Assembly (NCBI GenBank): GCA_934232895.1
Contig: CAKQGH010000005.1
Span: forward strand, 1,422-65,421
DNA: 64,000 nt
Origin: an uncultured Alphaproteobacteria bacterium
Lineage (GTDB): Bacteria; Pseudomonadota; Alphaproteobacteria; Rs-D84
Reading direction: 5' to 3'
Each line of letters starts with the position of its first letter. The stretch's first letter is position 1. Shown here piece by piece: positions 3,843 to 56,716 of this stretch. The notes below the pieces were generated by a model. The model was not told the origin of the DNA and ran no database searches. It saw nothing but the letters and a program-made list of their open reading frames with translations. Position numbers and translations under genes: made by a program.

Positions 3843-6344
3843 ATGAATCGCATAAAAAAACAAATTGTAAATTTGCGTAAATCCACACCGCAAAGTGTCC
3901 AGTGGTTGTTGCTGGGCGCGGCGTTTATTGTGGTGCTGATTTTAATGACCATGTTGATTGGTGGCCGCGGGAACAAGCAAATTGCGACCGACGATGATGC
4001 GCCAATCGCATTGCGCACGGTTCCGGAAACGGAATCTGTGAATTGGGGGAATATTCGCGTTGGTACCACCGAAAAAGACAGCATAAAAATATTTGCATCT
4101 GCCCCGGCCAAGGTTATCAAGGTGCGTCTGAACCAGGATGTGCCGGGTTTTCGTGTTTCTGAAACATGTGGTCGTATGGCGCAAATAAACGAAAACACAT
4201 CGTGCACGATATCAATGGAATATGCGCCAACCGCGGCGGCCGATGTAATAACAACCGCATTGTTTATTGATTGGCGCGGCGCGGATCAACCCGACAAAAT
4301 GCAGAAAACCGATAAAATCGTATTGGTGTTGGGCGCCACCGCCCCGGAACAATCAAAAACCACAACGACCGGTTCCAATGCCGATACCACCAAGGCCCCC
4401 AGCGCGGCCGCCACAAAAAGCGAGCCCGCCCCCGCCCCATTTATTGACACACCCGCACCGACCAAGGCCGATATAAAACAAGAAATTGCAACAATTGCCC
4501 CATCGGATCCATTTACCGATGATGACGATGACTATGTCGCGCCGGCGCCCGCGAAAAAGGCCGAGCCCGCGGTTGTTGAACGCACCAATACCAAAAAGAC
4601 CGAGGCATGTTCCGCGTTTGCATTCCCGGGATATAATTCAACCGGCACACAAATCGGGTGGATAAAGCCCGAAAATGGCGCGTACTATTTTCATCCGTTT
4701 TCGGATAAAGAATGCAAAAATCCAACCGGGACATATAATCCCGACACCGGTTTAATTACCGATATAAAAAATGCCGGTAAAAAAATTGGAACCGATGCCG
4801 AACATATTGGGTACACCGCAATTGCATCAAATGGTGCGTTGCCGCAATTATCAAACCCGGTCCAGAAAAATAAAAACCGCGCATATCAATTGACCACCGA
4901 TGAATTGATGGCAATGGATGGCGCCATGTCTGGGGCCGAGGACGCATCGCGTTTCCGCGCCGGCATTACCATGAACATAAAACCAGATGACACGGTGTTT
5001 GGCACCAGTGGTATGGACGCGGTATTTTCATCCGACCCATTTGACCGTACGTTTGTGTTGCGCCAGTATAAACCAATTCCGGCCACCATTGTGTCCGAGG
5101 TTCGTGCCGACCCATCGTTATATGATGGAAAAGAAAAAAGTTTACCGGTACGCGCGACGGTTGACCGAAATGTATATTCCGACAATGGTCGCACAGTTGT
5201 TATACCGGCGGGCACATTGATGTTGGGATATGTCACGGGTGATATTCCGGGGCCATATAAAACAATTGGTCGTATGGATATTCGTTGGTACCAATTTATA
5301 TTGCCCAGTGGCGTTGAATTCAATTTTGATGGTGGTGGCGACACCGACCCATTTTCGGGCGATTCCCAGGGGCGCGTTGGTGTTCCCGGATACGGCAGTA
5401 CCGATTATGTGGAACAATTTGTTATGCCATTGCTGACATCGCTGGTGCCGGCGGCGGTGAATATGATTGCGCCAATATCGGACCGTTTTGTAAACCAAAT
5501 TGATTTGGATAATAACACCGTTGTTCAATCGGGTACCGTGCGTTCATCGGAATTGGCGAAAAATGAAATCATTACCGCATGGAACCAGGTTGCCCAGAAA
5601 TTAGTTGTAGATATGATGGACAACACCGTTCCGCCGTTTTCAATTGCGGCCGGCACACGCATAACCGTGTTTCCACCAACCGATTTGGTTTTAACCTGTG
5701 GCAGTGACGCCAGTAAAAAATGTTCTGTATCGACATTGGAACAAACCACCGGTTATGCCAATTTGAATCGTCGCAATCAGCGCGCTGATTGGAAACACAG
5801 TGGCGAGGTCGATTATGCCGATGGTTCATGGGTTGGCCAGGTTCGTTCATTTAACCTGAGCAGTGATTACTGCAAACAGGACAAAGATGGTCTGTGGGAT
5901 GTGAACGAGGACAACATCAGCGGCCTCTATTCCGAAGGGTATGATTACAGAACGATATTGATGTATTGCAAATCGCTGAATTACCAGGCGAAAAACAATG
6001 CGCGCCAGGATGCGGTGTACAAAAACCAACAGGAACAGTTCAAATCGACATACGAGGCCAGCGGCAGCGCCGGCGGCGTGTCGGGGCAAACTGTGTCGGG
6101 CAATCAGACATATAACACTGAAATATTGGGACTGAAATATAACGATGATGGTTCAATTCAAAATCCATTTGAATCATCGGCCAAAGGCGAAGAACAAGCC
6201 GCCCAGGCCATCATTACGTGCGAGGATGGCACCGCCCCAGATGCAAACGGATGCTGTACCGGTGAAATCTACACCGACATGGGCGAAGCCGGATTCAATT
6301 GTTGTCCCGAAACGGGTGGCGATTGTTTCCCGCCGATATTGTAA
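3843..6344 (+). CDS. virB10: VirB10/TrbI-like T4SS protein, unusually long (833 aa)
   Basis: The N-terminal TM helix is WLLLGAAFIVVLILMTMLIGG, followed by a Pro/Ala/Thr-rich linker. The TrbI-type core reads PATIVSEVRADP...LPVRATVDRNVYSDNGRTVVIPAGTLMLGYV...RMDIRWYQFILPSGVEF...DSQGRVGVPGY...AAGTRITVF. Extra N- and C-terminal modules are present. Confidence 0.85.
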   Translation: MNRIKKQIVNLRKSTPQSVQWLLLGAAFIVVLILMTMLIGGRGNKQIATDDDAPIALRTVPETESVNWGNIRVGTTEKDSIKIFASAPAKVIKVRLNQDVPGFRVSETCGRMAQINENTSCTISMEYAPTAAADVITTALFIDWRGADQPDKMQKTDKIVLVLGATAPEQSKTTTTGSNADTTKAPSAAATKSEPAPAPFIDTPAPTKADIKQEIATIAPSDPFTDDDDDYVAPAPAKKAEPAVVERTNTKKTEACSAFAFPGYNSTGTQIGWIKPENGAYYFHPFSDKECKNPTGTYNPDTGLITDIKNAGKKIGTDAEHIGYTAIASNGALPQLSNPVQKNKNRAYQLTTDELMAMDGAMSGAEDASRFRAGITMNIKPDDTVFGTSGMDAVFSSDPFDRTFVLRQYKPIPATIVSEVRADPSLYDGKEKSLPVRATVDRNVYSDNGRTVVIPAGTLMLGYVTGDIPGPYKTIGRMDIRWYQFILPSGVEFNFDGGGDTDPFSGDSQGRVGVPGYGSTDYVEQFVMPLLTSLVPAAVNMIAPISDRFVNQIDLDNNTVVQSGTVRSSELAKNEIITAWNQVAQKLVVDMMDNTVPPFSIAAGTRITVFPPTDLVLTCGSDASKKCSVSTLEQTTGYANLNRRNQRADWKHSGEVDYADGSWVGQVRSFNLSSDYCKQDKDGLWDVNEDNISGLYSEGYDYRTILMYCKSLNYQAKNNARQDAVYKNQQEQFKSTYEASGSAGGVSGQTVSGNQTYNTEILGLKYNDDGSIQNPFESSAKGEEQAAQAIITCEDGTAPDANGCCTGEIYTDMGEAGFNCCPETGGDCFPPIL

Positions 6345-6573: not shown

Positions 6574-6930
6574 ATGACATCACAACAACATATACACATC
6601 GAATATGCACCTGAAAAATTCCAGAACGCCGAACAATTGTGGTTTTGGTTTTTGTATTCCAAATCGGTGCAAAACGGGTTTATGCACGGGGCCACGCACG
6701 CCACGCGACGTTGCGCGGAATTGTTGGATGTGGAAATGCTGATAACAAAATTGTATCTGTGTGGGAAATTGACCGATGAACAATTGAATGTAATGAAAGA
6801 ATTTGGTGACCGCCGCCGCGCACCACATCACTATATTTGGGCGGAAAATCGCGCGGCAGATTTGTGGCGACGCGCAATGGAAACAATCGATGTCGCCGCA
6901 CGCGCACGCGGTTGGTTGGTAAATGAATAA
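6574..6930 (+). CDS. Hypothetical protein (118 aa)
   Basis: A strong RBS (aaggagga) lies 6-7 nt upstream of the ATG. The composition is plausibly coding. I recognise no family. Confidence 0.6.
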   Translation: MTSQQHIHIEYAPEKFQNAEQLWFWFLYSKSVQNGFMHGATHATRRCAELLDVEMLITKLYLCGKLTDEQLNVMKEFGDRRRAPHHYIWAENRAADLWRRAMETIDVAARARGWLVNE

Positions 6931-8413: not shown

Positions 8414-8523
8414 AAAAAATACCACCGGAACGAATTCAGGTGGTTGGAGTTTGATAACAATATTAGGAATTGCGTTGCTTATTCGGTATATTCACAACAC
8501 TCCAACCACATAACATGGTTGGA
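8414..8523 (-). promoter_or_regulatory. Structured leader RNA element L1 with terminator, upstream of the 7455-8390 gene
   Basis: In mRNA sense the segments are TCCAACCA (A), TGGTTGGAGT (B), ACTCCAACCA (C), then ACCACC-tGAAttcgTTCc-GGTGGT followed by a U-run. B can pair with either A or C, and C overlaps the terminator stem. It is homologous to 36951-37056. Confidence 0.5.
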
Positions 8524-8595
8524 ATTTTATCGTCTTGGATTGACGCCTAATATGGGTTATCAAGCCCAATGACAGAACGCCTGTCATCAAATAGA

Positions 8596-8627: not shown

Positions 8628-8655
8628 AAAAAAACGCCCAAACGGGCGTTTTTTA
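8628..8655 (-). terminator. Intrinsic terminator after yidC
   Basis: The sequence is aaaaaacgccc-aaac-gggcgtttttt, immediately after the yidC stop codon. Confidence 0.75.
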
Positions 8656-10191
8656 TTATTTGGATTTATATTTGATTATTTGCATCTGGGCAATACCAAA
8701 CAGGTTCGACACCGTCCAATACAGTACCAATCCCGCCGGCATCCATGCAAACAATATTGTAAACATAACCGGCATCCATTTCATAACACGTTGGGTCTGG
8801 GCCACCGCATCATTGCCACCGGGCGCGTTTGGCGCCGATTGCAACCGCGATTGCCACCACATTGTTGCACCCATCAATATTGGCAATATGAAATATGGAT
8901 CCATTGCCGCCAAATCAGAAATCCACAAAAATCCGGCATTGCGCATTTGAACCGATACCAACAGCGCCTTGTACAATGCAAAGAATATTGGAATCTGAAT
9001 CAGCATTGGCAAACACCCCGACATAGGCGATGTTTTATGCGTCTGGTACAGGCGCACCATTTCCATTTGCTGGCGCGCACGATCGTTTGCGTACAGTTTC
9101 TGGATGCGTGCCATTTCTGGTTGCATTTTCTGCATGGCCAGCATTGATGTATACGATTTACGCGTCAATGGCCATATTGCCAGCCGCAATAGCAATGTGA
9201 ATATGATAATCGCAATGCCATAATTGCCAACAATCGCATACAGTCCGTTTAACGCCCACAACATTGGCCGTGCCAAGAACCAGAACCATCCATAATCAAC
9301 CGTTTTATCAACACCAACAATTGTTCCCGCCGCCGCATTTAATACATTTTGATCACGCGGGCCGGCAAATATACGCGTTGTGATTGTGTTTGTGGCATTT
9401 GGCGCAATGGTAATCGCCGCCGATGCCGCGTCTGTCTGGAATAATTCACCACCCAATTTTTTTGTGCGAATTGTCTGGTCGGGTGCGTCCAATTGCACAA
9501 CCGTTTCAGTATATTGGTCGGCAAATCCCGCAAAGCCATTTGTTGTGGAATATGCATACGATTTTTTCGCTAATTTATTCCAATCGGTATGTTCAACATC
9601 ACCGTTTACGTACGCAACCGCCCCAGTATAAACACCGGCCGACGATTTCGCATTTGCCGCACGAACTGTACGCGCAAACGGCGCCACCGCAATGTCACGC
9701 GGGGAATTATTTTTTATTTCGTCGGTGATTGTAATTACATATCCATCGACCGACACAGTGCGACGAAATTCCACACCGTCGGAATTGCGCCATGTGTATG
9801 CGTCGCCCGCGTTACGCCACACGGTCGCGGGGGTTGGTGCCGATGTGCCGGTTGCCATAACGCCCGTTTCAACAAAGCAATTTTCACAATCCAGCAAAAC
9901 CATCCCGTCGTCCAGTTTAATGTTCGACACACGCAGGCCGCGTACATCTGCCGTGATTTTATCGGATTTTATTTCCGACACAGGAACTGACGATACATCG
10001 ACAATATCGACCACTTCGGTATTTGTTGTGTCCTGGGGCGTGGTTTTTGTAAATGCGCCAAACGCCCACATTGCCAAGAAAAACAATGCGAGCCACCATA
10101 AAAAACCACCAAGCGGCGATTTTTTCGCCGTGGCGTTTTTGTTTGCATTCCACTGGGCAAAGCCCGAATTATTATCCATATATCGTACCAT
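8656..10191 (-). CDS. yidC: Membrane protein insertase YidC
   Basis: It has a large periplasmic N-domain. The conserved core reads NYGIAIIIFTLLLRLAIWPLT...MQKMQPEM...SPMSGCLPMLIQIPIFFALY. Confidence 0.95.
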   Translation of the reverse strand: MVRYMDNNSGFAQWNANKNATAKKSPLGGFLWWLALFFLAMWAFGAFTKTTPQDTTNTEVVDIVDVSSVPVSEIKSDKITADVRGLRVSNIKLDDGMVLLDCENCFVETGVMATGTSAPTPATVWRNAGDAYTWRNSDGVEFRRTVSVDGYVITITDEIKNNSPRDIAVAPFARTVRAANAKSSAGVYTGAVAYVNGDVEHTDWNKLAKKSYAYSTTNGFAGFADQYTETVVQLDAPDQTIRTKKLGGELFQTDAASAAITIAPNATNTITTRIFAGPRDQNVLNAAAGTIVGVDKTVDYGWFWFLARPMLWALNGLYAIVGNYGIAIIIFTLLLRLAIWPLTRKSYTSMLAMQKMQPEMARIQKLYANDRARQQMEMVRLYQTHKTSPMSGCLPMLIQIPIFFALYKALLVSVQMRNAGFLWISDLAAMDPYFILPILMGATMWWQSRLQSAPNAPGGNDAVAQTQRVMKWMPVMFTILFAWMPAGLVLYWTVSNLFGIAQMQIIKYKSK

Positions 10192-12567: not shown

Positions 12568-13392
12568 TTATACCAAATCGCGCGCCAATTGCGCAAATAT
12601 TTCGGGCGATAATTCTTCGGCACGTTCGGTGCCAGTTAAATTATATTTTGCCCAATCGACATTTGGCACTATGCCACGAATCATTTTGCGACGCTGGCCA
12701 AACAGTTTTGCCGTTATGCGTTCCAATTTTTCAACATCGGGCAACGCGGCGATTTTCGATTTATGTGGAATAACCCCAACCACGGCCGATTGCACACGCG
12801 GACGCGGAACAAACGCGGTATTTGGTACATCAAACAAAATTTTCGCATCGGCAATCAATGTTGTCAAAACCGCCAGGCGCCCATATTGTTCATCACCCAC
12901 GCGGGCGGTGATACGTTGTGCAACCTCGCGCTGGAACATCAATGTCATAGATTTAATTGGCGCACCAGATGCCACCGCGACCAACCAACGCGTAAATAAT
13001 TCCGTGCCGACATTGTATGGCAAATTTGCACAAATTGCATATTCACCCAACCCCAGTTCCGCGGTATTTACGCGTAATGCATCGCCATATATAACCGTTA
13101 AACGCCCCGCCGACGCGGCAACAATTTCATCAAGAATTGGTTTGGTCGCGGTATCTTTTTCAATTGCAATAACGCGGCGTGCGCCCGCCATCAATAATGC
13201 ACGCGTCAATCCCGCCGGGCCCGGCCCTATCTCCATAACATCGGTATTTTCAATGTCTGGTACACTGCGCGCAATGCGGCCCGTTAAATTCAAATCAAAT
13301 AAAAAGTTTTGACCAAATTGCTTTTTCGGTTCCAGCCCCGCCGCACGCATCATTTCGGCAACCGGCGGTAAAGATTTTATTTTATCAATCAT
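12568..13392 (-). CDS. rsmA: 16S rRNA (adenine1518/1519-N6)-dimethyltransferase
   Basis: Motifs KKQFGQNFL and EIGPGPAGLT are present, and the length is 274 aa. Confidence 0.93.
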   Translation of the reverse strand: MIDKIKSLPPVAEMMRAAGLEPKKQFGQNFLFDLNLTGRIARSVPDIENTDVMEIGPGPAGLTRALLMAGARRVIAIEKDTATKPILDEIVAASAGRLTVIYGDALRVNTAELGLGEYAICANLPYNVGTELFTRWLVAVASGAPIKSMTLMFQREVAQRITARVGDEQYGRLAVLTTLIADAKILFDVPNTAFVPRPRVQSAVVGVIPHKSKIAALPDVEKLERITAKLFGQRRKMIRGIVPNVDWAKYNLTGTERAEELSPEIFAQLARDLV

Positions 13393-18890: not shown

Positions 18891-20894
18891 TTGCGACGCA
18901 ACGAAATAAATTCCTATAATTTCATTATGCGTGGGTTGTTGGATAACCAATTTGAAAATTTATTTTTGTGGGTGCCGTTTTTAATGGCGTTTGGTGCCGC
19001 GCTGTATTTTTCCATTGGGACCGAGCCCCACATTCCATACCCATTTATATTCGCCGCATTATTCGGCGTTGTGGCGGGCGCGCGACGTGCGCCAATACTG
19101 GTGCGGGCATGCGCATTGTTTGCATTTGGATTTATGTATGCCATGGCGTTCACGCATTTTGTGGCAACACCACAGATGCCACGCAATGTACATGATGCGT
19201 CTATTGTTGGCACAATTGAAAACATTGATTACACCGATACAAAAACGCGCGTTGTTATGCGCATAGATGGTCGGGACATAAATGCGGGCGACGCACATAC
19301 CACAATTCGCGCATCGATTATGCAAAATGATGCGCCGTTGCACATTGGCGATACGGTGCGCGCAACCGCAAATCTGAACCGGCCAAATCCACCCTATGCA
19401 CCTGGGGCGTTTGACTATGCGCGATGGGCATATTTTAATCATCTGACCGCGACCGGATTTATTACCGAATATGAAATATTGTCGCATAATGATGCCAACA
19501 ACATAAACACACTGCGCGAATATTTGCACGGTGCGGCAAATTCTTTTTTATCCGACGCGTTGGTGTTGGGATATAAAAACATTGTCCCACGCGAAGAAAA
19601 CGCAATTTGGACCGCCACCGGCGCGGGGCATGTTTGGTCAATCAGTGGATTTCACATGACATTGGTGTCCGGATGGTTGTTTGCAATATTTTACAGCATA
19701 TTCCGATTGATTGCGCCAATCACACGCCGCGTACCCGCGCGGGTGCCCGCGACCGTATGCGCATGGTTTGGGTTGTTGTTTTATCTGTTTCTGTCGGGAA
19801 TTGATGTTGCAACAATTCGCGCGTTTTTAATGGCAACATTGGTATTTGCGGCGTTTTTATGTGGCCGCAATGCAATTTCTATGCGCAATGTGTGCATTGC
19901 AATGATGATTATATTTCTGATAAATCCACATTATGTAATGCAAGCCGGATTTCAGTTATCATTTGCCGCAATATTTGGCCTGATTTGGTTTTGGGGCACG
20001 GTTAAACCACGCATTCCACAAAACAAGATATTAAAAATATTGTATACGGCAACCATGACATCAATTATTGCAACGGTGTTCACAGCCCCGTTTGTAATAT
20101 CACATTTTGGTGCGTTTCCGATATACAGTCTGATTGGCAATTTGGTATTACTGCCCATATTTTCAATTGCAATTATGCCACTGGTTATCGTTGGGACAAT
20201 TACCGCACCAATCGGGTGGCATTGGCCACTGGACGCGGGCAATGCCGTTTATAATTTTGCATTGCAAATTGCGACACACATAACCGATTTACCATTTGCC
20301 AGTATGAATATGCCATATATGTCGAACACGGCAATTGTACTGTTCATATTGGCATTTGCATCATTGATGTTCGTGCGGCCATTACGGGTAAAAATAAATT
20401 ACATTTTGTTCGCGGCGCTTGCCGCATTTGGGGTGATAAATGTAATATGCACACCGCGCCCGGTGTTCTATGCAACATACGATCATGAATTGGTTGGATT
20501 TGTTGAAAACGGCAAATTAGAATTTAACAAGGGACGCGCATCAAATCACTATTTTGCATTTGATACATGGAAACAATTAAATGGCGAACCCACCGGCACA
20601 AAAAACACGCGCCGCAAACACGACCATGGTCTGTACATATTTCACGCACCCAAATTTACATTGGCATACATTCAGAAATTTGTACCACTGTCGAAACACT
20701 TGGTTGATTTATGCCGTGACGACAATATTGACTATATCGTGTCGTATTTCAAAATAGACAGTCCGCAATGCAATCACAAAATATTAAACGATGGATTCGT
20801 AATCTATGGTTCGGGCCACGTTATTTATTCGCCGGCGCATCGCCCATGGCATAATCCGCCGAAACAAAATATAACCCCGCCGCCGGCGCCGTAG
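18891..20894 (+). CDS. comEC: ComEC/Rec2 family competence protein
   Basis: It is polytopic and carries GAGHVWSISGFHMTLVSGW. The start is uncertain, with an alternative Met at 18927. The 3' end overlaps convergent truA by 74 nt. Confidence 0.85.
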   Translation: MRRNEINSYNFIMRGLLDNQFENLFLWVPFLMAFGAALYFSIGTEPHIPYPFIFAALFGVVAGARRAPILVRACALFAFGFMYAMAFTHFVATPQMPRNVHDASIVGTIENIDYTDTKTRVVMRIDGRDINAGDAHTTIRASIMQNDAPLHIGDTVRATANLNRPNPPYAPGAFDYARWAYFNHLTATGFITEYEILSHNDANNINTLREYLHGAANSFLSDALVLGYKNIVPREENAIWTATGAGHVWSISGFHMTLVSGWLFAIFYSIFRLIAPITRRVPARVPATVCAWFGLLFYLFLSGIDVATIRAFLMATLVFAAFLCGRNAISMRNVCIAMMIIFLINPHYVMQAGFQLSFAAIFGLIWFWGTVKPRIPQNKILKILYTATMTSIIATVFTAPFVISHFGAFPIYSLIGNLVLLPIFSIAIMPLVIVGTITAPIGWHWPLDAGNAVYNFALQIATHITDLPFASMNMPYMSNTAIVLFILAFASLMFVRPLRVKINYILFAALAAFGVINVICTPRPVFYATYDHELVGFVENGKLEFNKGRASNHYFAFDTWKQLNGEPTGTKNTRRKHDHGLYIFHAPKFTLAYIQKFVPLSKHLVDLCRDDNIDYIVSYFKIDSPQCNHKILNDGFVIYGSGHVIYSPAHRPWHNPPKQNITPPPAP

Positions 20895-31743: not shown

Positions 31744-31771
31744 TTGATTTATCATTTATGGCGGTTATAAT
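31744..31771 (+). promoter_or_regulatory. Putative sigma70-type promoter for the lipoprotein leader
   Basis: TTGATT (31744-31749) and TATAAT (31766-31771) are separated by a 16-nt spacer. Confidence 0.5.
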
Positions 31772-31886
31772 GGGAACTGAATCAGTGGGGACACTGGTTC
31801 GGGGCTGTAGCAAGCCTAATTATCCGGTGCAGACCAATTTGGAACATCGTTAGTCCGTGATTCCTGTGGTTTTGTGTCGTTATTTA

Positions 31887-32009
31887 TCCCTGACTTATAC
31901 AAGTCGGGGAGCTGTCTGTTATACAACAGGGTTTTACCCGAAAGCGACAGAATCATTGATAATTTGATTGCTAACTCCCCGACCGCCTGTCTTTGCTGGG
32001 CGGTTTTTT
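31887..32009 (+). promoter_or_regulatory. Structured leader element L3 with terminator, upstream of the lipoprotein pair
   Basis: The segments are TCCCTGAC (A), GTCGGGGAG (B) and CTCCCCGAC (C, a perfect complement of B). They are followed by ACCGCC-tgtctttgct-GGCGGT and a T-run ending 22 nt before the ATG. The layout matches L1 and L2. Confidence 0.4.
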
Positions 32010-32031
32010 CATTATAAAAAAGGATCCAGGA

Positions 32032-33315
32032 ATGAAAAAAATAACAATTTTGACATCAATCCTAGCATTGGCCGCATGTGGCGGCGGTTCTGGCGGGAAA
32101 GCGCCTGATATACAAATACCAAAAGAATTACAAACAAGTGCAATCAATAGTGTCACTATTGATCAAGCTGCCGCAAATAAGTCAATGGTAAATTTTGTAG
32201 GAAACCGCATTCCTGAGGCATACACCGCCGATGCCACAGACGAAGAAAAATTGACCATCGCAACAAATCTACTAAATAATATGCACACTACATTACAGGC
32301 TTTATCCGATCTGCAGGTCTCTGGAGACGCGGACGCATTGCGCCAGTATATAGCCAATCATCAAACAGATGTAAAAAATGCACTTAGCCTGTATTTTGCA
32401 GATTTTACACCATCAAGCGATCCAGACCATTTTTATATGAATAACTACAACCGGATTTCATCGGATAAATTGAACAACTTTGAAAAAAAGAATGGTTTTG
32501 TGTCCGGCACACTTGGACATAACGACATGGACTTTTACAACACAAGTGACCAACCAGTAAAAATACAATTTAGCAACGGAAAAATCACTGGTATAGATTT
32601 TGATAACGGTCTATTCAAACAACTAAGCCCAGATGGCACCATACGAATAGAAGAAGATTACACAAAAAATCCAGATTATGACCCGACCACAGATCCAGTA
32701 TATGGTGCGTTTACCGGCAAGGCCACATTATTGGGGAACACGGTAGGGCTGCAATATTCTGATTTTGGCTACGTTCTGTCCAATGGCACAACAACATATT
32801 CAGATGGACATACAGAACAAAATAATGATGGCCATATATTTTTTGGCGGATATATACCACATGAAATAAAGGCCACAGAAAGCGGTACAATGACATTCAA
32901 TGGGACCGCCATAGCAGTTATAAATTCGCATACATACGACAGCGACAGTGGCGTTGACAATTTTGACACAATGACATCCACAGTAAACGATGCAAAATTA
33001 ACCGTCAATAATGGGAATGAAGTATTAACCGCAAATTTCTCAAAAGCACAAAATCCATGGTATGACGTGATTATAAGCAAAGACAGTGCAACACTTGTAA
33101 ATTCAGACAGCGAAATTCCTGTTGAATATCAGGTAAAAAATACCACTGGTTCAACCAGCCCAGAAAATGATTTTTTGCGCGCTAAATATTATGGGGACAA
33201 TGGCCAAATATCAGAAGCGGTTGCAGGTTCACATTTTTATACCACTGGCGCACTTTCTGACGAACGCATAACGCATGAAATTGATGCCGACATTGGGTTC
33301 GGCGGAAAATTATAA
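32032..33315 (+). CDS. Surface lipoprotein with a TbpB/fHbp-like C-terminal beta-barrel pattern (427 aa)
   Basis: The lipobox is LALAAC followed by GGGSGG. C-terminal patterns are YSDFGYV, MTFNGTAIAV, AKLTVNNGNEVLTANF and AKYYGDNGQISEAVAGSHFY, ending IGFGGKL. Confidence 0.85.
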   Translation: MKKITILTSILALAACGGGSGGKAPDIQIPKELQTSAINSVTIDQAAANKSMVNFVGNRIPEAYTADATDEEKLTIATNLLNNMHTTLQALSDLQVSGDADALRQYIANHQTDVKNALSLYFADFTPSSDPDHFYMNNYNRISSDKLNNFEKKNGFVSGTLGHNDMDFYNTSDQPVKIQFSNGKITGIDFDNGLFKQLSPDGTIRIEEDYTKNPDYDPTTDPVYGAFTGKATLLGNTVGLQYSDFGYVLSNGTTTYSDGHTEQNNDGHIFFGGYIPHEIKATESGTMTFNGTAIAVINSHTYDSDSGVDNFDTMTSTVNDAKLTVNNGNEVLTANFSKAQNPWYDVIISKDSATLVNSDSEIPVEYQVKNTTGSTSPENDFLRAKYYGDNGQISEAVAGSHFYTTGALSDERITHEIDADIGFGGKL

Positions 33316-33329
33316 AAAAGGAGCAAATA

Positions 33330-34523
33330 ATGAAAAAAATAACAATTTTGACATCAATATTGGCATTGGCTGCATGTGGTGGGGTTTCTGGCGGGAACGG
33401 GCCAATTCCCCCATCAACAACAATTTCAGAACCAGAAACCCCAAATATAACAGTGCCAGCAGGGGCGCAAAACAGTAATCGGGCAATTACTTCTATGAAA
33501 TCCGAAATATTAGTTCCGAATAATTCCGGCACACACAGTATGACAGGTCGTTCATCAACCACACATATAAACGGTAAAGACTATACATCATACAGATTGG
33601 ATGATGTCAAATTTGAACAGTCTGGTTTTGACGGCGATTCTACAGATGAAACATATCTGAAATTTGGGCTGGACGAAAACGGAAAAATCATAAGATTGGA
33701 TGTGTTTAATGGGGATGAATCAAGAACACAAACCATCACTCGCGATTCAGACGATGCAAAAACTTTTTCTGAAACGTCCAAAAAATATACAATCAATTAC
33801 GGAGATAATGCCTCATACGAGATAAATACATCTATGGATACAAATCTGGATGATGACCTGGAATTTATATTAACGAAAGAAAACAATCCAGATAAAGACG
33901 CAATCCTGGCGGCCTATAAAGACAAAAAGTACACAACAGCAGATGTAAAAATAACTACAACATCAGACATGTATGGAAAAACATTATCCAAACCACTAAG
34001 TTATGCGGATTTTGGTTATGTCACACAAGTTTATGGAAACGACACAAACGGTGTTCATACAGTAATAACTGGTGGATACGAAATCAAAGCAATCGCCGAA
34101 GAAAATTTTGCATCAACAGATATGACTTTTACGGGCACGGCCATCGGGGCAATATCTGCCGAGACCAGCGACGGATACGATTCAAAACGAATAAAAACAG
34201 AAAATGGCACGGCAACTTTAACGTTCCAGGACGGCAAAGAAACTCTGACCATGCCATTTGACGATTACTACACGGTCACAGCCACCCGTGCACGTGGGGA
34301 ATCAGACCCGACACTGGAATTCACGGATTATAAAGGAACCGATGATAAATTTAAGTTTAACGAAACAACCCTAAACAACCGAGAAAATACCAGACTTCAC
34401 TTCCGTACGGGGTACTATGGCAACAATAACAATCCAACTGAAGCCATCGGTACTATATCCGTAGAACAAAACAACAACGGGGCACGCATTGGCTTTGATG
34501 CCGCATTTGGTGGCACAAGATAA
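33330..34523 (+). CDS. Paralogous surface lipoprotein with a TbpB/fHbp-like C-terminal pattern (397 aa)
   Basis: The first 18 residues (MKKITILTSILALAACGG) are identical to the upstream gene. Patterns are YADFGYV, MTFTGTAIGA, ATLTFQDGKETLTMPF and GYYGNNNNPTEAIGTISV, ending AAFGGTR. Confidence 0.85.
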   Translation: MKKITILTSILALAACGGVSGGNGPIPPSTTISEPETPNITVPAGAQNSNRAITSMKSEILVPNNSGTHSMTGRSSTTHINGKDYTSYRLDDVKFEQSGFDGDSTDETYLKFGLDENGKIIRLDVFNGDESRTQTITRDSDDAKTFSETSKKYTINYGDNASYEINTSMDTNLDDDLEFILTKENNPDKDAILAAYKDKKYTTADVKITTTSDMYGKTLSKPLSYADFGYVTQVYGNDTNGVHTVITGGYEIKAIAEENFASTDMTFTGTAIGAISAETSDGYDSKRIKTENGTATLTFQDGKETLTMPFDDYYTVTATRARGESDPTLEFTDYKGTDDKFKFNETTLNNRENTRLHFRTGYYGNNNNPTEAIGTISVEQNNNGARIGFDAAFGGTR

Positions 34524-34529
34524 ACCAAA

Positions 34530-34580
34530 CACCCCATCATAAAAGCAAAAACCGGCCTTGTGCCGGTTTTATTTTTGGTT
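34530..34580 (+). repeat. Repeated terminator module, copy R2
   Basis: The sequence is caccccatcataaaagcaaaaaccggccttgtgccggttttatttttggtt (see R1). Confidence 0.75.
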
Positions 34581-34601
34581 CCATAAAGCATAGCGCCCAT
34601 C

Positions 34602-34973
34602 TTATTTGCATCCAACGAACGCCCAATTATCGGCACTTGGCCCTTTTAACATTGTGCGCATTGTGTATTTTTCCTTGCATGTGTGATTCCAACCTGGTTT
34701 ATCAAATGCAAATTCAACATAAACATGTTCTGTATCTTTCGCCATGTCAAGCACCGCTGTTTCACCCAAGCCAGAAAAATCAACCCATTGTCCATTAGGT
34801 TCAAGACTTTTTACCTGTGCCACCCATGGCTGTTCAGCTGGACATTTATAAACAACGTGACTTTTTGTAGATGCTATTTTTTCGCAACCCTGCATCGTTT
34901 GGTCTATGTCTTTTACATCAGAACTGCACCCCATCACTAACAGCATTGGAAACGCGAGCAAAATTTTTTTCAT
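34602..34973 (-). CDS. Lipoprotein, hypothetical
   Basis: It starts MKKILLAFPMLLVMGC (lipobox). The mature part contains several Cys residues. Confidence 0.7.
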   Translation of the reverse strand: MKKILLAFPMLLVMGCSSDVKDIDQTMQGCEKIASTKSHVVYKCPAEQPWVAQVKSLEPNGQWVDFSGLGETAVLDMAKDTEHVYVEFAFDKPGWNHTCKEKYTMRTMLKGPSADNWAFVGCK

Positions 34974-35022
34974 CTGTGGCAACTCCTTGTTTAACGCACG
35001 GTATTATAACATATATCGACAT

Positions 35023-35054
35023 AAAAAACACCTGTTTAACACAGGTGTTTTTTT
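35023..35054. terminator. Bidirectional intrinsic terminator
   Basis: The sequence is aaaaaacacctgt-ttaac-acaggtgttttttt. Confidence 0.7.
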
Positions 35055-35416
35055 CAACACGAATACGAGTATGTTGATGGCATTTTATACAGATTGTTTG
35101 ACACAGCATCAACCAGTATAGGGATTATCCCCAGGAAAAATCCCGGGAAAACATCCAATATTACCGCGGGCGTATTTAATTGCCGCACGACGTTTGCCTG
35201 TGAACAGTTTTCACCAGCACTGTTTATGGTCAGGTTTTCTGCGGAATAAATATTCAGCGCGCTGTCCGGTTTTATCTTATATATTCCGCTGTCAGCTGAC
35301 ACGGTTATAACATCTGTGGAATTATTGTAAACCATTGTGTTATGGTTGCTGCCGACGCCAATCGCGCCACACCCGGCCAGCACAACGCAAATGGCAATGC
35401 ACAATAAATTTTTCAT
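35054..35416 (-). CDS. Lipoprotein, hypothetical
   Basis: It starts MKNLLCIAICVVLAGC (lipobox). A hydrophobic segment lies near the C-terminus. Confidence 0.7.
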   Translation of the reverse strand: MKNLLCIAICVVLAGCGAIGVGSNHNTMVYNNSTDVITVSADSGIYKIKPDSALNIYSAENLTINSAGENCSQANVVRQLNTPAVILDVFPGFFLGIIPILVDAVSNNLYKMPSTYSYSC

Positions 35417-35425
35417 AGTTCATCC

Positions 35426-36472
35426 TTATTTTCTGTTGGAAATTTTGTATGCAATGCGGAATATCATACCAATGGCCAGGCATGAAATAAACGCATAGAA
35501 AACCCAGGTCACACAATCACGACCCTTGGTCGACAGAATATCGCGCGCCCACCATTCTTCCATTAATTCGCGTTTTGGGCCAACAAAATCAATGTACGAT
35601 GGCTCAACACTTTTTATGCCATTGCGGCCTATTTTCAATGTGACATACCCCCAACGCGGTTCGGTTTTGTCGCGCACTGATTGACCGCTGGATGGGATTG
35701 TGTAAATCGGAATACCTGCGAATTTCCCGGTTGAAAAATAATGTACATGACCAAAGAACATTGCGTCTATTTTATGTCCACGCAAAACGGATGCCAATTT
35801 ATCGGCCGATTCCGGGTTCATCGTATGATCTTCGAAAAAGTCTGGTCGGGTGTTGATTGGTGGCATGTGATTGAATATCACGCAATTACGAAACATTGGA
35901 CGAATATTTTTCAATGTATCTGCCAACCATTGAAATTGCGCATCATCAATATCGGGCGTGGATGTATCCAGCGCAATGAACAATGTATTACCATACCCAA
36001 ACCAATAATATGCCGCACCCATAACGGTGGTGTAAAACGCCTTGTTCACGACTGGTTGCTTGGACAAACCTTCGCGACGCATAACATCGTGATTGCCTGG
36101 AATTGCATACATGGGCAGGCCTGTTAATTTCGGCAAGATTTCTTCCAGCATCCAATAATACCCGGTGATTGACCCAGTTGTTGCCATATCACCCAGATAC
36201 ATCATAAAATCGTATTCTGGATGCGATTTGCGGGCGGTCCCTATAACACTTTCCAGTATACGATCATACGAGCCAGAATCCGACACCAACAGCACAGTGA
36301 TGTCTTTGGCCCCAGGGTTCAAGAATTTTGACGCCGGGTGGTCAAACGCCTGGATTGAATCAAAGAAGCAGTCATCAAAATATGCATGTGCGGCCAGCAC
36401 TCCAACCCCAGCAAAAAAACATACAACGGATAATCCAATAAATATTTGTGACAATCGTTTTAATATTATCAT
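35426..36472 (-). CDS. Membrane-anchored metallophosphoesterase (calcineurin-like)
   Basis: Motifs LLVSDSG, YLGDMAT, IPGNHD, FNHMPP and GHVH are present, with N- and C-terminal TM helices. The ORF could extend to 36529. Confidence 0.85.
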   Translation of the reverse strand: MIILKRLSQIFIGLSVVCFFAGVGVLAAHAYFDDCFFDSIQAFDHPASKFLNPGAKDITVLLVSDSGSYDRILESVIGTARKSHPEYDFMMYLGDMATTGSITGYYWMLEEILPKLTGLPMYAIPGNHDVMRREGLSKQPVVNKAFYTTVMGAAYYWFGYGNTLFIALDTSTPDIDDAQFQWLADTLKNIRPMFRNCVIFNHMPPINTRPDFFEDHTMNPESADKLASVLRGHKIDAMFFGHVHYFSTGKFAGIPIYTIPSSGQSVRDKTEPRWGYVTLKIGRNGIKSVEPSYIDFVGPKRELMEEWWARDILSTKGRDCVTWVFYAFISCLAIGMIFRIAYKISNRK

Positions 36473-36877: not shown

Positions 36878-36950
36878 ATCCGCTGTAATAGGCGACCTAT
36901 TATACGAGAATGATAAGCTCGGCAAAAACCGCCTGCGCAGGCGTAAAATG

Positions 36951-37056
36951 CTCCAACATCGTCGGTTGGAGGGTGGTCGAATATATTGAATAGACCAACA
37001 TGTGTTTTTGCATGCTTATCAACTCCAACCGCCTTGATACATCGGGCGGTGTTTTT
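36951..37056 (+). promoter_or_regulatory. Structured leader RNA element L2 with terminator, upstream of the XRE regulator gene
   Basis: The segments are CTCCAAC (A), GGTTGGAG (B) and CTCCAACC (C), then ACCGCC-loop-GGCGGT and a T-run. Long blocks are shared with L1: GTTGGAG, GAATATA..GAATA, and TTATCAA(A)CTCCAACC. Confidence 0.5.
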
Positions 37057-37080
37057 ATATATAACCCCAAGGAGCAAAAT

Positions 37081-37425
37081 ATGTCTGGGCAAACACGCAA
37101 TGCAAACGATTTCAACACCAGGCTGGGTCGCGCCATAGCCGTGCAACGCGCACGTATGGGCATGTCACAGAAAGATTTATCTAAATTACTGGAGGTGTCG
37201 TTTCAACAAATTCAAAAATATGAATCCGGCGGCAATCGTTTCCCGGTTGCGCGCTTGCATGAACTGTGCAAATTATGGGACATTGGCATCGGCACCATTA
37301 TTGGCGAGACCGAACAAGAATACGCCCACGACAAACAAATGACCATGCTGATTCAAAATATATATAAACTGTCGCGGGACAATCGGAAAATAATTACCAC
37401 ACTGGTTGATGCATTGGCGAAATAG
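37081..37425 (+). CDS. XRE-family helix-turn-helix transcriptional regulator
   Basis: The RBS is aaggag. The HTH reads MSQKDLSKLLEVSFQQIQKYESGGNR. Confidence 0.85.
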   Translation: MSGQTRNANDFNTRLGRAIAVQRARMGMSQKDLSKLLEVSFQQIQKYESGGNRFPVARLHELCKLWDIGIGTIIGETEQEYAHDKQMTMLIQNIYKLSRDNRKIITTLVDALAK

Positions 37426-50208: not shown

Positions 50209-51297
50209 TTATGCGAATTTTAATAACACCAGTGCCAATCCCGAAAACAGTACCGACATTATGAAAAATCTGTCGACTATTTTTGTTTCGACCCAACCCA
50301 ATTCTTCGAAATGGTGGTGCAATGGCGCGCGCAGGAATATACGACGCCCGGTCCCGGTAATTTTACGCGTAATTTTGAAATACATGGTTTGTGTAAACGA
50401 CGACAGCAATATGATAACCATCATCCCCGCGGCAATGCCCATAATGATTTCTGATTTTAACAACATTGCAACCGTGCCCATAAATCCGCCCAGTGCCAGC
50501 GACCCCACATCGCCCATAAATATTGCGGCCGGACGCGCGTTGTACCATAAAAAGCCCAGCACCGCGCCAAACGCCGCACCCAATGGCGCATACAGCCCCG
50601 ATGCCCCAGGCAAAAACATAACCGTATCCATAAACCCGATGCGCGTTGCACCATACAGTGCCACGACCAATACCACCAACACCGGCAGATATAGTTTAGC
50701 AAGCATTCCATCCAAACCATCGGTGATATTAGTGGCATTTGCCGACCCACAAATTACAAAGTATGCAAATACATAATACAACACCCCAAGTGGCAGAATA
50801 ATTCCCGCCCCCAGTGCAACCGAATATTCCGGAATATATGGCGGCATTGTACGGTTTATCATATACGCCAATGCGATGACGCATATTCCTTCGACCACCA
50901 GACGGGTCAACGGCGACAGGCCGTTTGCCGCCTTTTTCGATTGCGATGTGACCTTTTTATAATCGTCGATAAAGCCAATCAAACCGAACATAACCAATGC
51001 GGCCAGCGCAATCCACGCCGACGCATTGCCGGTTGGCATAAACAATACCGATGGAATTAAAATTGCCAACACAACCAAAATTCCACCCATGGTTGGCGTT
51101 CCCGCCTTTTGCCGGTGTGATTCGGGCACATTTTCACTGATGGGCTGGCCCTTTTTCTGCCACGCATGCATGGCCGCAATAAACGGTCGCCCAAACAACA
51201 GCATTATCAAAAATGCCACACCAAACGCCGCGGCAAATTGGGTCCAACCACTGGCAAAAAAAGAATAGCCATGCGCCAGAAAAAAATTAGTCAGCAT
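50209..51297 (-). CDS. mraY: Phospho-N-acetylmuramoyl-pentapeptide transferase
   Basis: It is 362 aa with 10-TM-type organisation. It reads GTPTMGG...NATNITDGLDG...FMGDVGSLALGG. Confidence 0.96.
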   Translation of the reverse strand: MLTNFFLAHGYSFFASGWTQFAAAFGVAFLIMLLFGRPFIAAMHAWQKKGQPISENVPESHRQKAGTPTMGGILVVLAILIPSVLFMPTGNASAWIALAALVMFGLIGFIDDYKKVTSQSKKAANGLSPLTRLVVEGICVIALAYMINRTMPPYIPEYSVALGAGIILPLGVLYYVFAYFVICGSANATNITDGLDGMLAKLYLPVLVVLVVALYGATRIGFMDTVMFLPGASGLYAPLGAAFGAVLGFLWYNARPAAIFMGDVGSLALGGFMGTVAMLLKSEIIMGIAAGMMVIILLSSFTQTMYFKITRKITGTGRRIFLRAPLHHHFEELGWVETKIVDRFFIMSVLFSGLALVLLKFA

Positions 51298-55426: not shown

Positions 55427-56716
55427 TTATTTTTTTATCGCGGCGTACCATTTTTTCAGGTTTCCCCATACAACATCGATGTTCTTTTTCGTGGTTTCAT
55501 AGAACGATGTTGGTATGGTTACATTTGCAAACAAAGTCTTGACCAGTGCGGGTATCATCGTCATAAACATGGCGATAAATATGCCCATCAATATGATTGT
55601 AATCAGACTGTCGTTGCGCATCATCAGCCCGTCCATCAAAATATGCGAATCGTTTTGTGCCAATGCCGCCGCCAACCGATTCGCACCGTTCCAACGCCCA
55701 AATATGGCATTCAAAAACATAACTGCGAATGTGATAAACACGCCAACCATTGCAATTCCCGCGGTACCACGCACAACATCGTCAATAATAGCCTTGATAT
55801 TTTTTCCACCATTTGGGAATATCGGCCACCCGGCGAACAACCACGACAGCAACATAAACGGAATCATTATCAAATCCATGGACAATTTGATAAATATTTC
55901 CAAAAAATACAGCGGTATTGGCAACAGCGCCGCAAAAAACAACACCAGCACCAACAGCCCCGCGAAAAATATTGGCACATTCGGGAACACTGGGACATCC
56001 CACATAATTTTGTGCATATATTGTTCGTTAAACGCCATATTTAACATGGTCCATCCAACGGTCATACCCAATCCGGTCATTTGGTGAACATTGCCAACCT
56101 CGCACGCCAAGTTATGGCGCAGGCGCGGCGAATATGCCCCAGCAGCGGCGGCGGTCGCATCAACCGATACCGGATCCGCAATTGCGGTTGCAACCACACA
56201 ATTTGAAAACGCATCATTACCCGCAACCACACGATTCAGCGACAGTCCAATATTAAAAACAGGCTCAATAACAATCGACGACAGCATTCGCGGCAATGGC
56301 ACCGCCAACAATGCGCACACCACGCCCAATTTTATAATTTGCGTACCGAACATACCAGCCAATGACCATGGGGTATCAACCTTGGCATTCATAAAACCGT
56401 TTAATAATTTCCAAGCGAACCAAACCGCAGTCAATCCCGCTGCGAATGGAATTATTACCGTGCCAATTGCATGATATATGCCGGGCAAAATATTTGACAT
56501 AGTTTGCATAATGTCTGCAAACATCTGGCACGACCAACACGATGAAAAGAAATTCATTGCATCCGCCATATTCGTTGGTGCCGCCGTGCGATATATTGAA
56601 AAACCCGCAATCACTCCCAGACCCGCAATACCGCCAACAACCAATGGCGCAACGGCCCCAGCCGAAAAAGGCAGGAATGATAAAAAAATCATCCAAAAAT
56701 TTTTTAGCTTGTTCAT
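55427..56716 (-). CDS. Polytopic membrane protein, paralog 1 (VirB6/TrbL-like by architecture)
   Basis: The start at MNKLKNFW (56716) avoids overlap with the divergent gene. It has about 8 hydrophobic helices, an N-proximal CWSC motif, a loop Cys pair, and a C-terminal tail IDVVWGNLKKWYAAIKK shared with paralogs 2 and 5. The functional call is an inference. Confidence 0.6.
   Translation of the reverse strand: MNKLKNFWMIFLSFLPFSAGAVAPLVVGGIAGLGVIAGFSIYRTAAPTNMADAMNFFSSCWSCQMFADIMQTMSNILPGIYHAIGTVIIPFAAGLTAVWFAWKLLNGFMNAKVDTPWSLAGMFGTQIIKLGVVCALLAVPLPRMLSSIVIEPVFNIGLSLNRVVAGNDAFSNCVVATAIADPVSVDATAAAAGAYSPRLRHNLACEVGNVHQMTGLGMTVGWTMLNMAFNEQYMHKIMWDVPVFPNVPIFFAGLLVLVLFFAALLPIPLYFLEIFIKLSMDLIMIPFMLLSWLFAGWPIFPNGGKNIKAIIDDVVRGTAGIAMVGVFITFAVMFLNAIFGRWNGANRLAAALAQNDSHILMDGLMMRNDSLITIILMGIFIAMFMTMIPALVKTLFANVTIPTSFYETTKKNIDVVWGNLKKWYAAIKK

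Follow-up and report, generated by a model that had tools for sequence, protein, structure and literature searches.

We report that a stretch of 64,000 nucleotides from an uncultured alphaproteobacterium of the order Rs-D84 (contig CAKQGH010000005.1 of assembly GCA_934232895.1, positions 1,422 to 65,421; hereafter the window, whose positions are used throughout) carries, directly upstream of a gene for a 311-residue secreted protein, a leader, L1, that belongs to a real, conserved and structured cis-regulatory RNA family. The family is of the known attenuator kind, lies outside Rfam and carries no name; it comprises 34 distinct leaders, approximately 180-220 nt each, from Candidatus Enterousia-like metagenome-assembled genomes (MAGs) and metagenomes, and two further copies, L2 and L3, are present in the window. 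L1 is probably a cis-acting transcription-attenuation leader of riboswitch-like design, in which the choice lies between a terminator and an antiterminator; from this design we infer termination and read-through, the direction of the switch and the existence of an effector. A first-pass annotation had described a leader of four segments (A, B, C and a terminator) with anti-antiterminator, antiterminator and terminator logic. This logic is supported, since all three helices are conserved and covary in relatives, and the segments were correctly recognized, but they make up only the 3' half of a larger junction RNA.

L1 reads on the minus strand from its 5' end to the end of its U-run (8414-8590). 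A promoter-like site, TTGTGA-17-TATCAT, was recovered by a promoter scan at 8624-8596, where a promoter had been placed in the first-pass annotation, and an equivalent -35/-10 pair is kept upstream of other family members; the transcription start is predicted to lie a few nt 5' of P1. According to the minimum free energy (MFE) fold the leader opens with P1, a 5' terminal hairpin (GAUGACAG / CUGUCAUU, 8568-8588), and the G1 box GGG (8565-8567), which can pair either with CUC in the 5' part of the C box (8449-8447), thereby extending P2, or with a local CCC (8556-8554). The 5' strands of the long-range helices P2 (UUGAUAAC, 8563-8556) and P2' (AUAUUAGG, 8553-8546), both assigned from the MFE fold and the covariation table as were their 3' strands, are followed by P3, a short variable arm (CGUC-AAUCCAA-GACG, 8531-8545) whose loop holds a third C-box-like sequence, A0.

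The 3' half starts with A (TCCAACCA, 8523-8516), a loop of 7 nt (tgttatg) and B (TGGTTGGAGT, 8508-8499), which together constitute P4, the proposed anti-antiterminator (A:B hairpin, 8499-8523; -14.9 kcal/mol, with covariation). Then come the P5 arm (8472-8500) with its conserved apical motif GAAUAUACCGAAUAA (8481-8493), the 3' strands of P2' (CCUAAUAU, 8467-8460) and P2 (GUUAUCAA, 8458-8451) and, 48 nt after B (8498-8451), the C box, an exact match to ACTCCAACCA (RNA ACUCCAACCA) at 8450-8441. C is complementary to B over 10 bp (the proposed antiterminator) and, in its 5' part, to G1, while its 3' ACCA opens the stem of the intrinsic terminator ACCACCtGAA-ttcg-TTCcGGTGGT (8414-8444; stem 8444-8435 / 8430-8421), which has nine pairs with one mismatch (-10.9 kcal/mol) and is followed by U6 (8419-8414), with 23 nt between the U-run and the ATG (8390). 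The first-pass positions of A, B, C, terminator and U-run are right to the base, and so is the overlap between C and the terminator stem that it had noted (the ACCA common to both). The perfect complementarity of B to A (8 bp) and to C (10 bp) was confirmed in the sequence; A:B extends to ten pairs if one G-U is included, and the B:C duplex amounts to -16.8 kcal/mol.

The 181-nt L1 leader folds at -61.2 kcal/mol (z = -5.6), and none of 200 dinucleotide shuffles was as good. Triples consisting of a 7-mer, its reverse complement and the 7-mer again were weakly unusual in the window (7 seen against a mean of 2.2 in 30 shuffles, one of which reached 7), and L1 and L2 were the sole matches that are not of low complexity. 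That L1 is not a product of chance follows from its conservation with covariation in related genomes, which is the real proof, rather than from the 7-mer test. With respect to the C box, one-mismatch near-matches to ACTCCAACCA also lie outside the three leaders (2869-2878, 12773-12782, 20491-20500, 36399-36408, 51090-51099 and 55740-55749); the window holds 12 C-box matches in total against 3.2 expected, and the eight that are left after dropping those internal to leaders equal the largest shuffle value, so these extra sites are probably due to chance.

A conserved leader, approximately 180-220 nt in length, lies upstream of homologs of the 311-residue protein, and most loci were fetched with this protein as bait. 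Further copies were obtained from a metagenome scan with a 19-mer of the 5' part (P1-G1), from contigs encoding homologs, from covariance models and from the window itself; the 19-mer scan gave 13 loci, of which five were true leaders and the others chance matches in unrelated sequence. Conservation in related genomes had been named as a check in the first-pass annotation, and the 34 distinct leaders bear it out. They fall into five sequence types with little common primary sequence. Single-sequence MFE folding recovers the shared architecture in 30 of the 34, and two of the remaining four (L3 and L055) differ only in part. For some rumen relatives of the 311-residue protein (L007, L010 and L023) the upstream region is of another sort and had no match to the model.

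The order of elements is P1, G1, the long-range helix P2/P2', a four-way junction with P3, P4 (A:B) and P5, the C box and the terminator, where C box and terminator begin directly after the 3' strand of P2, and the internal loop between P2 and P2' contains a conserved CC(C). P1 occurs with at least ten different stem sequences in the family, every one of them complementary; P3 is variable (4 bp in L1, approximately 45 nt in members of the main type), and the A:B loops of 4-8 nt lack conservation. Outside the boxes the best-conserved sequence, present in all types, is GAAUA-N(4-25)-GAAUA(A) at the apex of P5, an arm motif that abuts B. In the window this motif is found at 8481-8493 (minus strand), 36979-36992 (plus strand) and 31917-31945 (plus strand); being near-symmetric, it could form G.A / A-U / A.A / U-A / A.G pairs. 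Every member has an intrinsic terminator of -9 to -12 kcal/mol, which in most members ends 10-30 nt 5' of the start codon and therefore leaves no room for a further promoter, and the leaders are invariably in sense orientation with a gene immediately downstream.

In several leaders of the main type a second module was seen between terminator and start codon (L003:2917-3000, L005:2896-3000, L011:2927-3000, L019:2934-3000 and L055:3942-4000). It consists of GGGGUAAUAU...AUAUUACCCC, then ACC...GGGGGG, the latter a Shine-Dalgarno (SD) sequence, and GUG, where CCCC has two possible partners, the 5' GGGG and the SD; the loop of the module frequently holds another C-box-like sequence, UUCCGACC. The module, which is absent from L1, L2 and L3, may represent a translational second tier.

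Covariation was evaluated for the terminator state (OFF) in alignment A2, which comprises 19 main-type leaders aligned with MAFFT. Here 94.7% of the cells are paired, compared with 37-48% when the partners are slid by one to three columns, and cells with double changes number 80 versus 23 +/- 4 in shuffles. Double changes affect 4 of the 8 pairs in P2, all 6 in P2' and 3 of 6 in P5, and the pairing between G1 and C is present in 100% of A2, with GAG:CUC variants in L2 and L029. Moreover, over all types, P2 and P2' each occur in more than 15 different complementary versions, P2 for example as UUGAUAAC/GUUAUCAA in L1, UUAAGCAC/GUGCUUAA in the closest relative of L1, UGAUAAGC/GCUUAUCA in L2, and elsewhere as UUGGUCGC/GCGACCAA and UUAGAAAAG/UUUUUCUAA. 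In alignment A6, which is model-based and covers 31 distinct 3' halves, A:B is 93% paired with double changes at five of eight pairs, and the terminator is 98% paired with double changes at seven of nine.

MAFFT shifted the C box out of register when applied over all types, and an anchor-based count together with the covariance-model alignments (A5 and A6) was used instead. Counted without alignment freedom, that is, anchored on the ungapped boxes of 30 distinct 3' halves, the alternative helix B:C is paired in 267 of 270 cells (positions 0-8) and has compensatory changes at three positions, namely position 3 (UA 11, CG 17, UG 2), position 6 (AU 10, GC 20) and position 8 (UA 22, AU 3, GC 2). 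The combination of UA at position 3 and GC at position 6 in L057 shows that these changes were independent, and the flanking positions 10-11 are only approximately 30% paired, which gives the helix defined ends. In leaders of the main type pairing is complete (100%) over the 10 bp of B:C, compared with only 86% for A:B, and B:C reaches positions where A is unpaired. Since position 8, with its change from UA to AU, is one at which the A of the main type is unpaired, B:C is itself under selection rather than a mere consequence of the similarity between A and C. The overlap of C with the 5' arm of the terminator amounts to 2-4 nt in every member, and B:C and the terminator are therefore mutually exclusive. 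Thus, what is generally looked for in an attenuator is present, i.e. an alternative helix that overlaps the terminator arm and a helix, A:B, that competes for B, and both of them covary. The duplex energies in the family (A:B -9 to -15 and B:C -16 to -24 kcal/mol), taken together with those of the terminator, fit attenuator logic.

The covariance models cover the 3' half of the leader. The first, R1, derives from seven 3' halves, those of L1 and L2 among them, and was run on the whole window with filters off, and the second-round model, R2, was trained on A5, which includes L3. Such models had been suggested in the first-pass annotation, and they do recover L1, L2 and L3 as well as new copies in relatives (L056:8335-8450, L020:1846-1962 and L029:2581-2722, all outside the model). 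The R1 scores are 130 bits for L1 and 90.5 bits for L2 (36940-37057, plus strand), where L2, as part of the seed alignment A4, is not independent, and the model also finds L3, which was outside the model, at 31876-32011 (plus strand; 29.2 bits, E = 3e-4). With R2 the scores for L1, L2 and L3 are 118.7, 82.6 and 63.7 bits, that of L3 not being independent, and all else stays at or below 21 bits. Two borderline R2 matches on the minus strand, both at approximately 21 bits, were discarded: 35020-35155, on inspection the 3' end of a coding region with an ordinary terminator, and 34544-34653, which in the model alignment looks like the terminator of the gene at 34602-34982 (minus strand). BLASTN of L1 against the window gave no further copy, because the copies share structure and not sequence, and L2 and L3 were found by covariance model only.

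The homolog of L1 that had been announced at 36951-37056 is thus real, but its strand is plus, with no match on the minus strand at E <= 10. The L2 leader occupies approximately 36884-37057 (plus strand, as are all its parts; R1 match, MFE z = -4.25 with the same architecture) and consists of P1 (36884-36904), G1 (36906-36908), P2 (36911-36918 / 37014-37021), P2' (36922-36929 / 37004-37011), A:B (36948-36974), P5 (36975-36996), C (37022-37031) and the terminator (37028-37050) with its U-run (approximately 37051-37056), ending 23 nt 5' of a gene for an XRE-family protein. A relative with 96% identity (L063) has the same leader and scores 80 bits on the plus strand versus 16 bits on the reverse strand. 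A minus-strand L2 was rejected since the model matches the plus strand only, and the apparent terminator at 36943-36930 (minus strand) is the reverse complement of P3.

L3 (about 31774-32010, plus strand throughout) was delineated by R1 and R2, a promoter and terminator scan and folding. It follows a consensus promoter, TTGATT-16-TATAAT (31744-31771, promoter scan), and is composed of P1 with a GGGA loop (approximately 31780-31799), G1 (31801-31804), P2 (31808-31813 / 31968-31973), P2' (31818-31824 / 31958-31964), A:B (31887-31910), P5 (31912-31950), C (31975-31984) and the terminator (31981-32005) with its U-run (approximately 32005-32010); it ends 21 nt 5' of the first of two lipoprotein genes. 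A simple terminator scan finds the terminator of L3 and misses those of L1 and L2, owing to an internal mismatch in the former and a 10-nt loop in the latter. The boxes come in two dialects within this one genome, a CCAACC type in L1 and L2 and a CCCCGACC type in L3, as in the main group, and within each of the three leaders G1, A, B and C agree with one another. The presence of two dialects argues for intramolecular pairing over a single sequence-specific common factor.

Several observations speak against attenuation as we propose it. The first-pass annotation had looked to folding for mutually exclusive helices, and B:C and the terminator do exclude each other, but folding of nested structures invariably yields the terminator state as the minimum. 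Full-length leaders pay 5-18 kcal/mol when B:C is forced, and before the 3' arm of the terminator is made the median cost is still 4.6 kcal/mol (L1 9.5, L2 5.8, L3 2.8); in these computations B:C is predicted never to form spontaneously. B:C also crosses P2/P2' and needs either a strained pseudoknot or an open P2. Conservation of the junction linkers between types is poor and P3 varies greatly, in contrast to typical metabolite aptamers, and no effector candidate was found. Finally, the picture of the regulon is skewed by the fetching of loci with the 311-residue protein, from which only the copies that came from the DNA pattern or the models are free. As the terminator state is always favoured in folding, read-through must be driven by some factor.

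On the 5' side, the G1 box and the CCC that follows the 5' strand of P2 can form a conserved local alternative that puts this strand into a hairpin loop, and the pairing changes in step, being GAG:CUC in L2 and L029. Chimeric leaders were observed at a second locus, between a gene for a 643-residue protein and gmk (L002:2800-2977, L045:3801-3977 and L046:3801-3977; also L047), where the 3' half and the first gene codons match the yidC-locus copy from their own lineage exactly and the 5' half differs, a composition that points to gene conversion between paralogous loci. In these chimeras (L002, L045-L047) the complementarity of P2/P2' is lost and the computed cost of B:C is 0-1 kcal/mol, which fits the idea that P2 holds the switch off.

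We therefore propose the following scheme for the attenuation leader. Transcription would start just 5' of P1. In the OFF state, the default, the four-way junction would fold, with P2/P2' closing it and A:B as one of its arms; G1 would clamp the 5' part of C, leaving the 3' part free for the terminator, and transcription would stop approximately 23 nt before the ATG. In the ON state the sensor domain would be open, with G1 in the local hairpin with CCC and P2 not formed; B would leave A and pair with C over 9-12 bp, the terminator stem would lose 2-4 bp and the polymerase would enter the gene. The effector would most likely act in trans, as a small ligand or an RNA-binding protein, on the junction or the apical motif of P5, and we infer that this motif is the best candidate for the contact.

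Among known systems the design is closest to the junction-type terminator riboswitches (SAM-I, yybP-ykoY Mn2+ and NiCo). These likewise have a closing helix whose 3' strand enters the expression platform, an antiterminator made of a sensor-domain strand and the 5' side of the terminator, strong helix covariation and several copies per genome before functionally related genes; the present leader differs in its poorly conserved linkers, its one highly variable arm, a ligand-free fold that favours the terminator and the lack of an Rfam match. The riboswitch features, as read from sequence, are indirect, i.e. a structured and covarying junction domain that seems to be joined to a terminator, and the weak conservation of the linkers counts against them. 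The variable linkers and a ligand-free fold dominated by the terminator make a protein or other trans-acting factor as possible as a riboswitch ligand. In antiterminators stabilised by a factor (T-box with tRNA, BglG/SacY with the ribonucleic antiterminator (RAT), ANTAR) the terminator is dominant too and read-through needs an external factor. The leader differs from the T-box in having neither T-box sequence nor specifier loop (Rfam negative) and, by eye, from RAT and ANTAR targets in having neither a RAT-like imperfect hairpin nor a pair of hexaloop hairpins; in the consensus structures inspected, the helix that overlaps the terminator is the long-range B:C and not one of the tandem hexaloop hairpins with A1/G4 of ANTAR targets. 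Moreover, its antiterminator is a perfect helix of 9-12 bp, for which A:B and P2 have to be overcome. The c-di-GMP-I and -II riboswitches (GEMM) are multi-copy cis-RNAs that precede genes for adhesins, secreted and surface proteins and transcription factors. Here the likeness is only in the kind of genes controlled, without structural or sequence similarity (Rfam negative). A search of the window with Rfam 15 (4227 models, among them T-box, the known leaders and every riboswitch class) at the gathering threshold gave three tRNAs only; L1 in E-value mode had sub-threshold matches only, mostly on the yidC terminator, and the main-type leader L003 had no match at E <= 1.

A more far-reaching interpretation, which we put forward tentatively and regard as possible rather than probable, is that the leader is a new class of sensor RNA, either a riboswitch that senses an unrecognised ligand or second messenger or an RNA on which an RNA-binding antiterminator, so far undescribed, acts, and that it serves as master cis-regulator of the secreted and surface proteome, together with one XRE regulator, in the genome-reduced gut bacteria of the order Rs-D84. 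The boxes would then act as an unusual toggle in which the two G boxes, G1 and B, change partners, with three to four C boxes available to them (the local CCC, A0, A and C), and the closing of one long-range helix decides between terminator and antiterminator.

The best-surviving alternative to attenuation, though an improbable one, is that the unit from promoter to terminator is an independent small RNA (sRNA) gene whose product of approximately 175-220 nt acts in trans through its SD-like G boxes or anti-SD-like C boxes, B:C serving the folding of the RNA itself or the pairing with targets; the two mechanisms could operate side by side. In favour of this reading, the unit runs from a promoter of its own to a terminator that looks efficient, the terminator fold is both highly stable and the thermodynamic default, several copies are present in the genome and the boxes resemble SD and anti-SD sequences. 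However, with the gene starting 10-30 nt past the U-run and no room for a promoter in most members, the gene could be expressed by read-through only, the leaders are always in sense and immediately 5' of a gene, and one genome has two incompatible box dialects.

Less probable still is an attenuator of the RNA thermometer type, in which P2/P2' would melt at host temperature and let B:C form. Every type has an AU-rich P2/P2' next to a GC-rich A:B and B:C, and the organisms are gut-associated (PMC12306168), but in pre-terminator transcripts the median cost of ON relative to OFF does not decrease with temperature (3.7, 4.6 and 5.0 kcal/mol at 15, 37 and 50°C, respectively), in a thermodynamic model that does not include kinetics, and for L1 it does not come close to zero.

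Ribosome-mediated attenuation of the trp type, in which a leader peptide would run across A and a stalled ribosome would free B for C, is very improbable. A, B, C and the terminator do correspond formally to the 1:2, 2:3 and 3:4 layout of the amino-acid operon attenuators (trp/his/thr; Trp_leader and Thr_leader in Rfam), which also lie just upstream of the gene, and in L1 an AUG at the predicted 5' end opens an open reading frame (ORF) of 31 codons through A and B. A survey of the 34 leaders, however, revealed no conserved ORF, starts, frames, lengths and stops all being different; the ATGs within the leaders all lack an SD, L3 has no ATG-initiated ORF before B, and in L001, the closest relative, the equivalent ORF stops before A. 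With neither a conserved leader peptide nor regulatory codons, and with segments 1:2 built as an arm into a four-way junction that a long-range helix of 16 bp closes, the leader differs from these attenuators, and the leader-peptide hypothesis was rejected, as no leader peptide means no trp-type attenuator. The corresponding Rfam models stay below threshold (Thr_leader 17 versus 55 bits, Phe_leader 20 versus 55), both on the yidC terminator. A DNA-level repeat (the end of a mobile element, a recombination site or an invertible promoter cassette) in place of RNA structure would account for the dispersed, multi-copy occurrence and for the gene-conversion chimeras that include first gene codons, and is hardly credible given that compensatory changes keep G-U-tolerant pairing on one strand only, that the model gives 90 bits on the plus strand of L2 and approximately 16 bits on the reverse strand in the relative L063, that the orientation is always sense to the downstream gene, and that terminal inverted repeats, a transposase and anything similar in phage or plasmid collections are lacking.

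Nearly all genes behind the leaders have an export signal in common. Of 30 downstream ORFs, 29 open with a signal peptide or lipobox, the exception being the XRE gene behind L2, and the proteins belong to several unrelated families (the 311-residue family, Cys-rich secreted proteins and lipoproteins). The gene proposed to be regulated by L1 (7455-8390, minus strand; ORF list) encodes the 311-residue secreted protein with its signal peptide. No Pfam family matched this protein; its AlphaFold2 model has a predicted local distance difference test value (pLDDT) of 80 and Foldseek matches to LG, pentraxin and lectin domains, and it is predicted to be an all-beta, ConA/LamG/pentraxin-like jelly roll. 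There are 138 homologs at E <= 1e-5, and among the 120 listed all are unnamed or 'hypothetical' and without a Pfam match. The family has an invariant C-terminal motif (VPVP..G....VP.NGMWD.V..KFYGN.GTG.F.YG), in the relatives L020, L022, L024 and L027 the domain resides inside larger Cys-rich proteins, and the protein and its neighbours occur in gut MAGs (human, ruminant and others) that bear the label Candidatus Enterousia or uncultured Alphaproteobacteria.

The proposed target of L2 is a 114-residue XRE-family HTH protein (37081-37425, plus strand; Pfam HTH_3, E = 6.5e-8). More distant XRE homologs (40% identity) lack a leader, suggesting that the link between leader and XRE gene is recent. 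L3 is proposed to regulate two paralogous lipoproteins with the lipobox LAAC (32032-33315 and 33330-34523, plus strand; ORF list), for which Pfam was negative. The two genes are in tandem, and their products have identical signal peptides (MKKITILTSILALAAC) and the C termini ...FGGKL and ...FGGTR, which presumably recall surface lipoproteins with a C-terminal beta-barrel (TbpB/fHbp-like).

Upstream of L1 lies yidC (8656-10191, minus strand; ORF list), with a bidirectional terminator at 8629-8654, a perfect hairpin (AAAAAACGCCCGTTTGGGCGTTTTTT) with A- and T-runs at its flanks. On the other side are genes for an 833-residue TrbI/VirB10-like protein (3843-6344, plus strand), preceded in relatives by a CagX/VirB9-like gene, and for a conserved 118-residue protein without a Pfam family (6574-6930, plus strand). 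The TrbI/VirB10-like and CagX/VirB9-like genes suggest that a type IV secretion cluster adjoins the secreted protein that L1 would regulate.

To our knowledge, nothing is known about gene regulation in Enterousia or in Rs-D84 as a whole. The covariation of every helix in the leaders, including the alternative one, is unusually clean, which recommends the family as a model for attenuators with several states and makes it a strong candidate for an orphan riboswitch. Candidatus Enterousia is placed in the order Rs-D84, uncultured gut bacteria whose genomes are mostly smaller than 1 Mb and which have neither a tricarboxylic acid cycle nor a respiratory chain (PMC12306168). Three copies of the leader within 64 kb, and surface or secreted targets in relatives, suggest that the cell surface, where contact with the host or partner organisms takes place, has an RNA-based regulon, and identifying the effector would reveal a signal that these bacteria sense.

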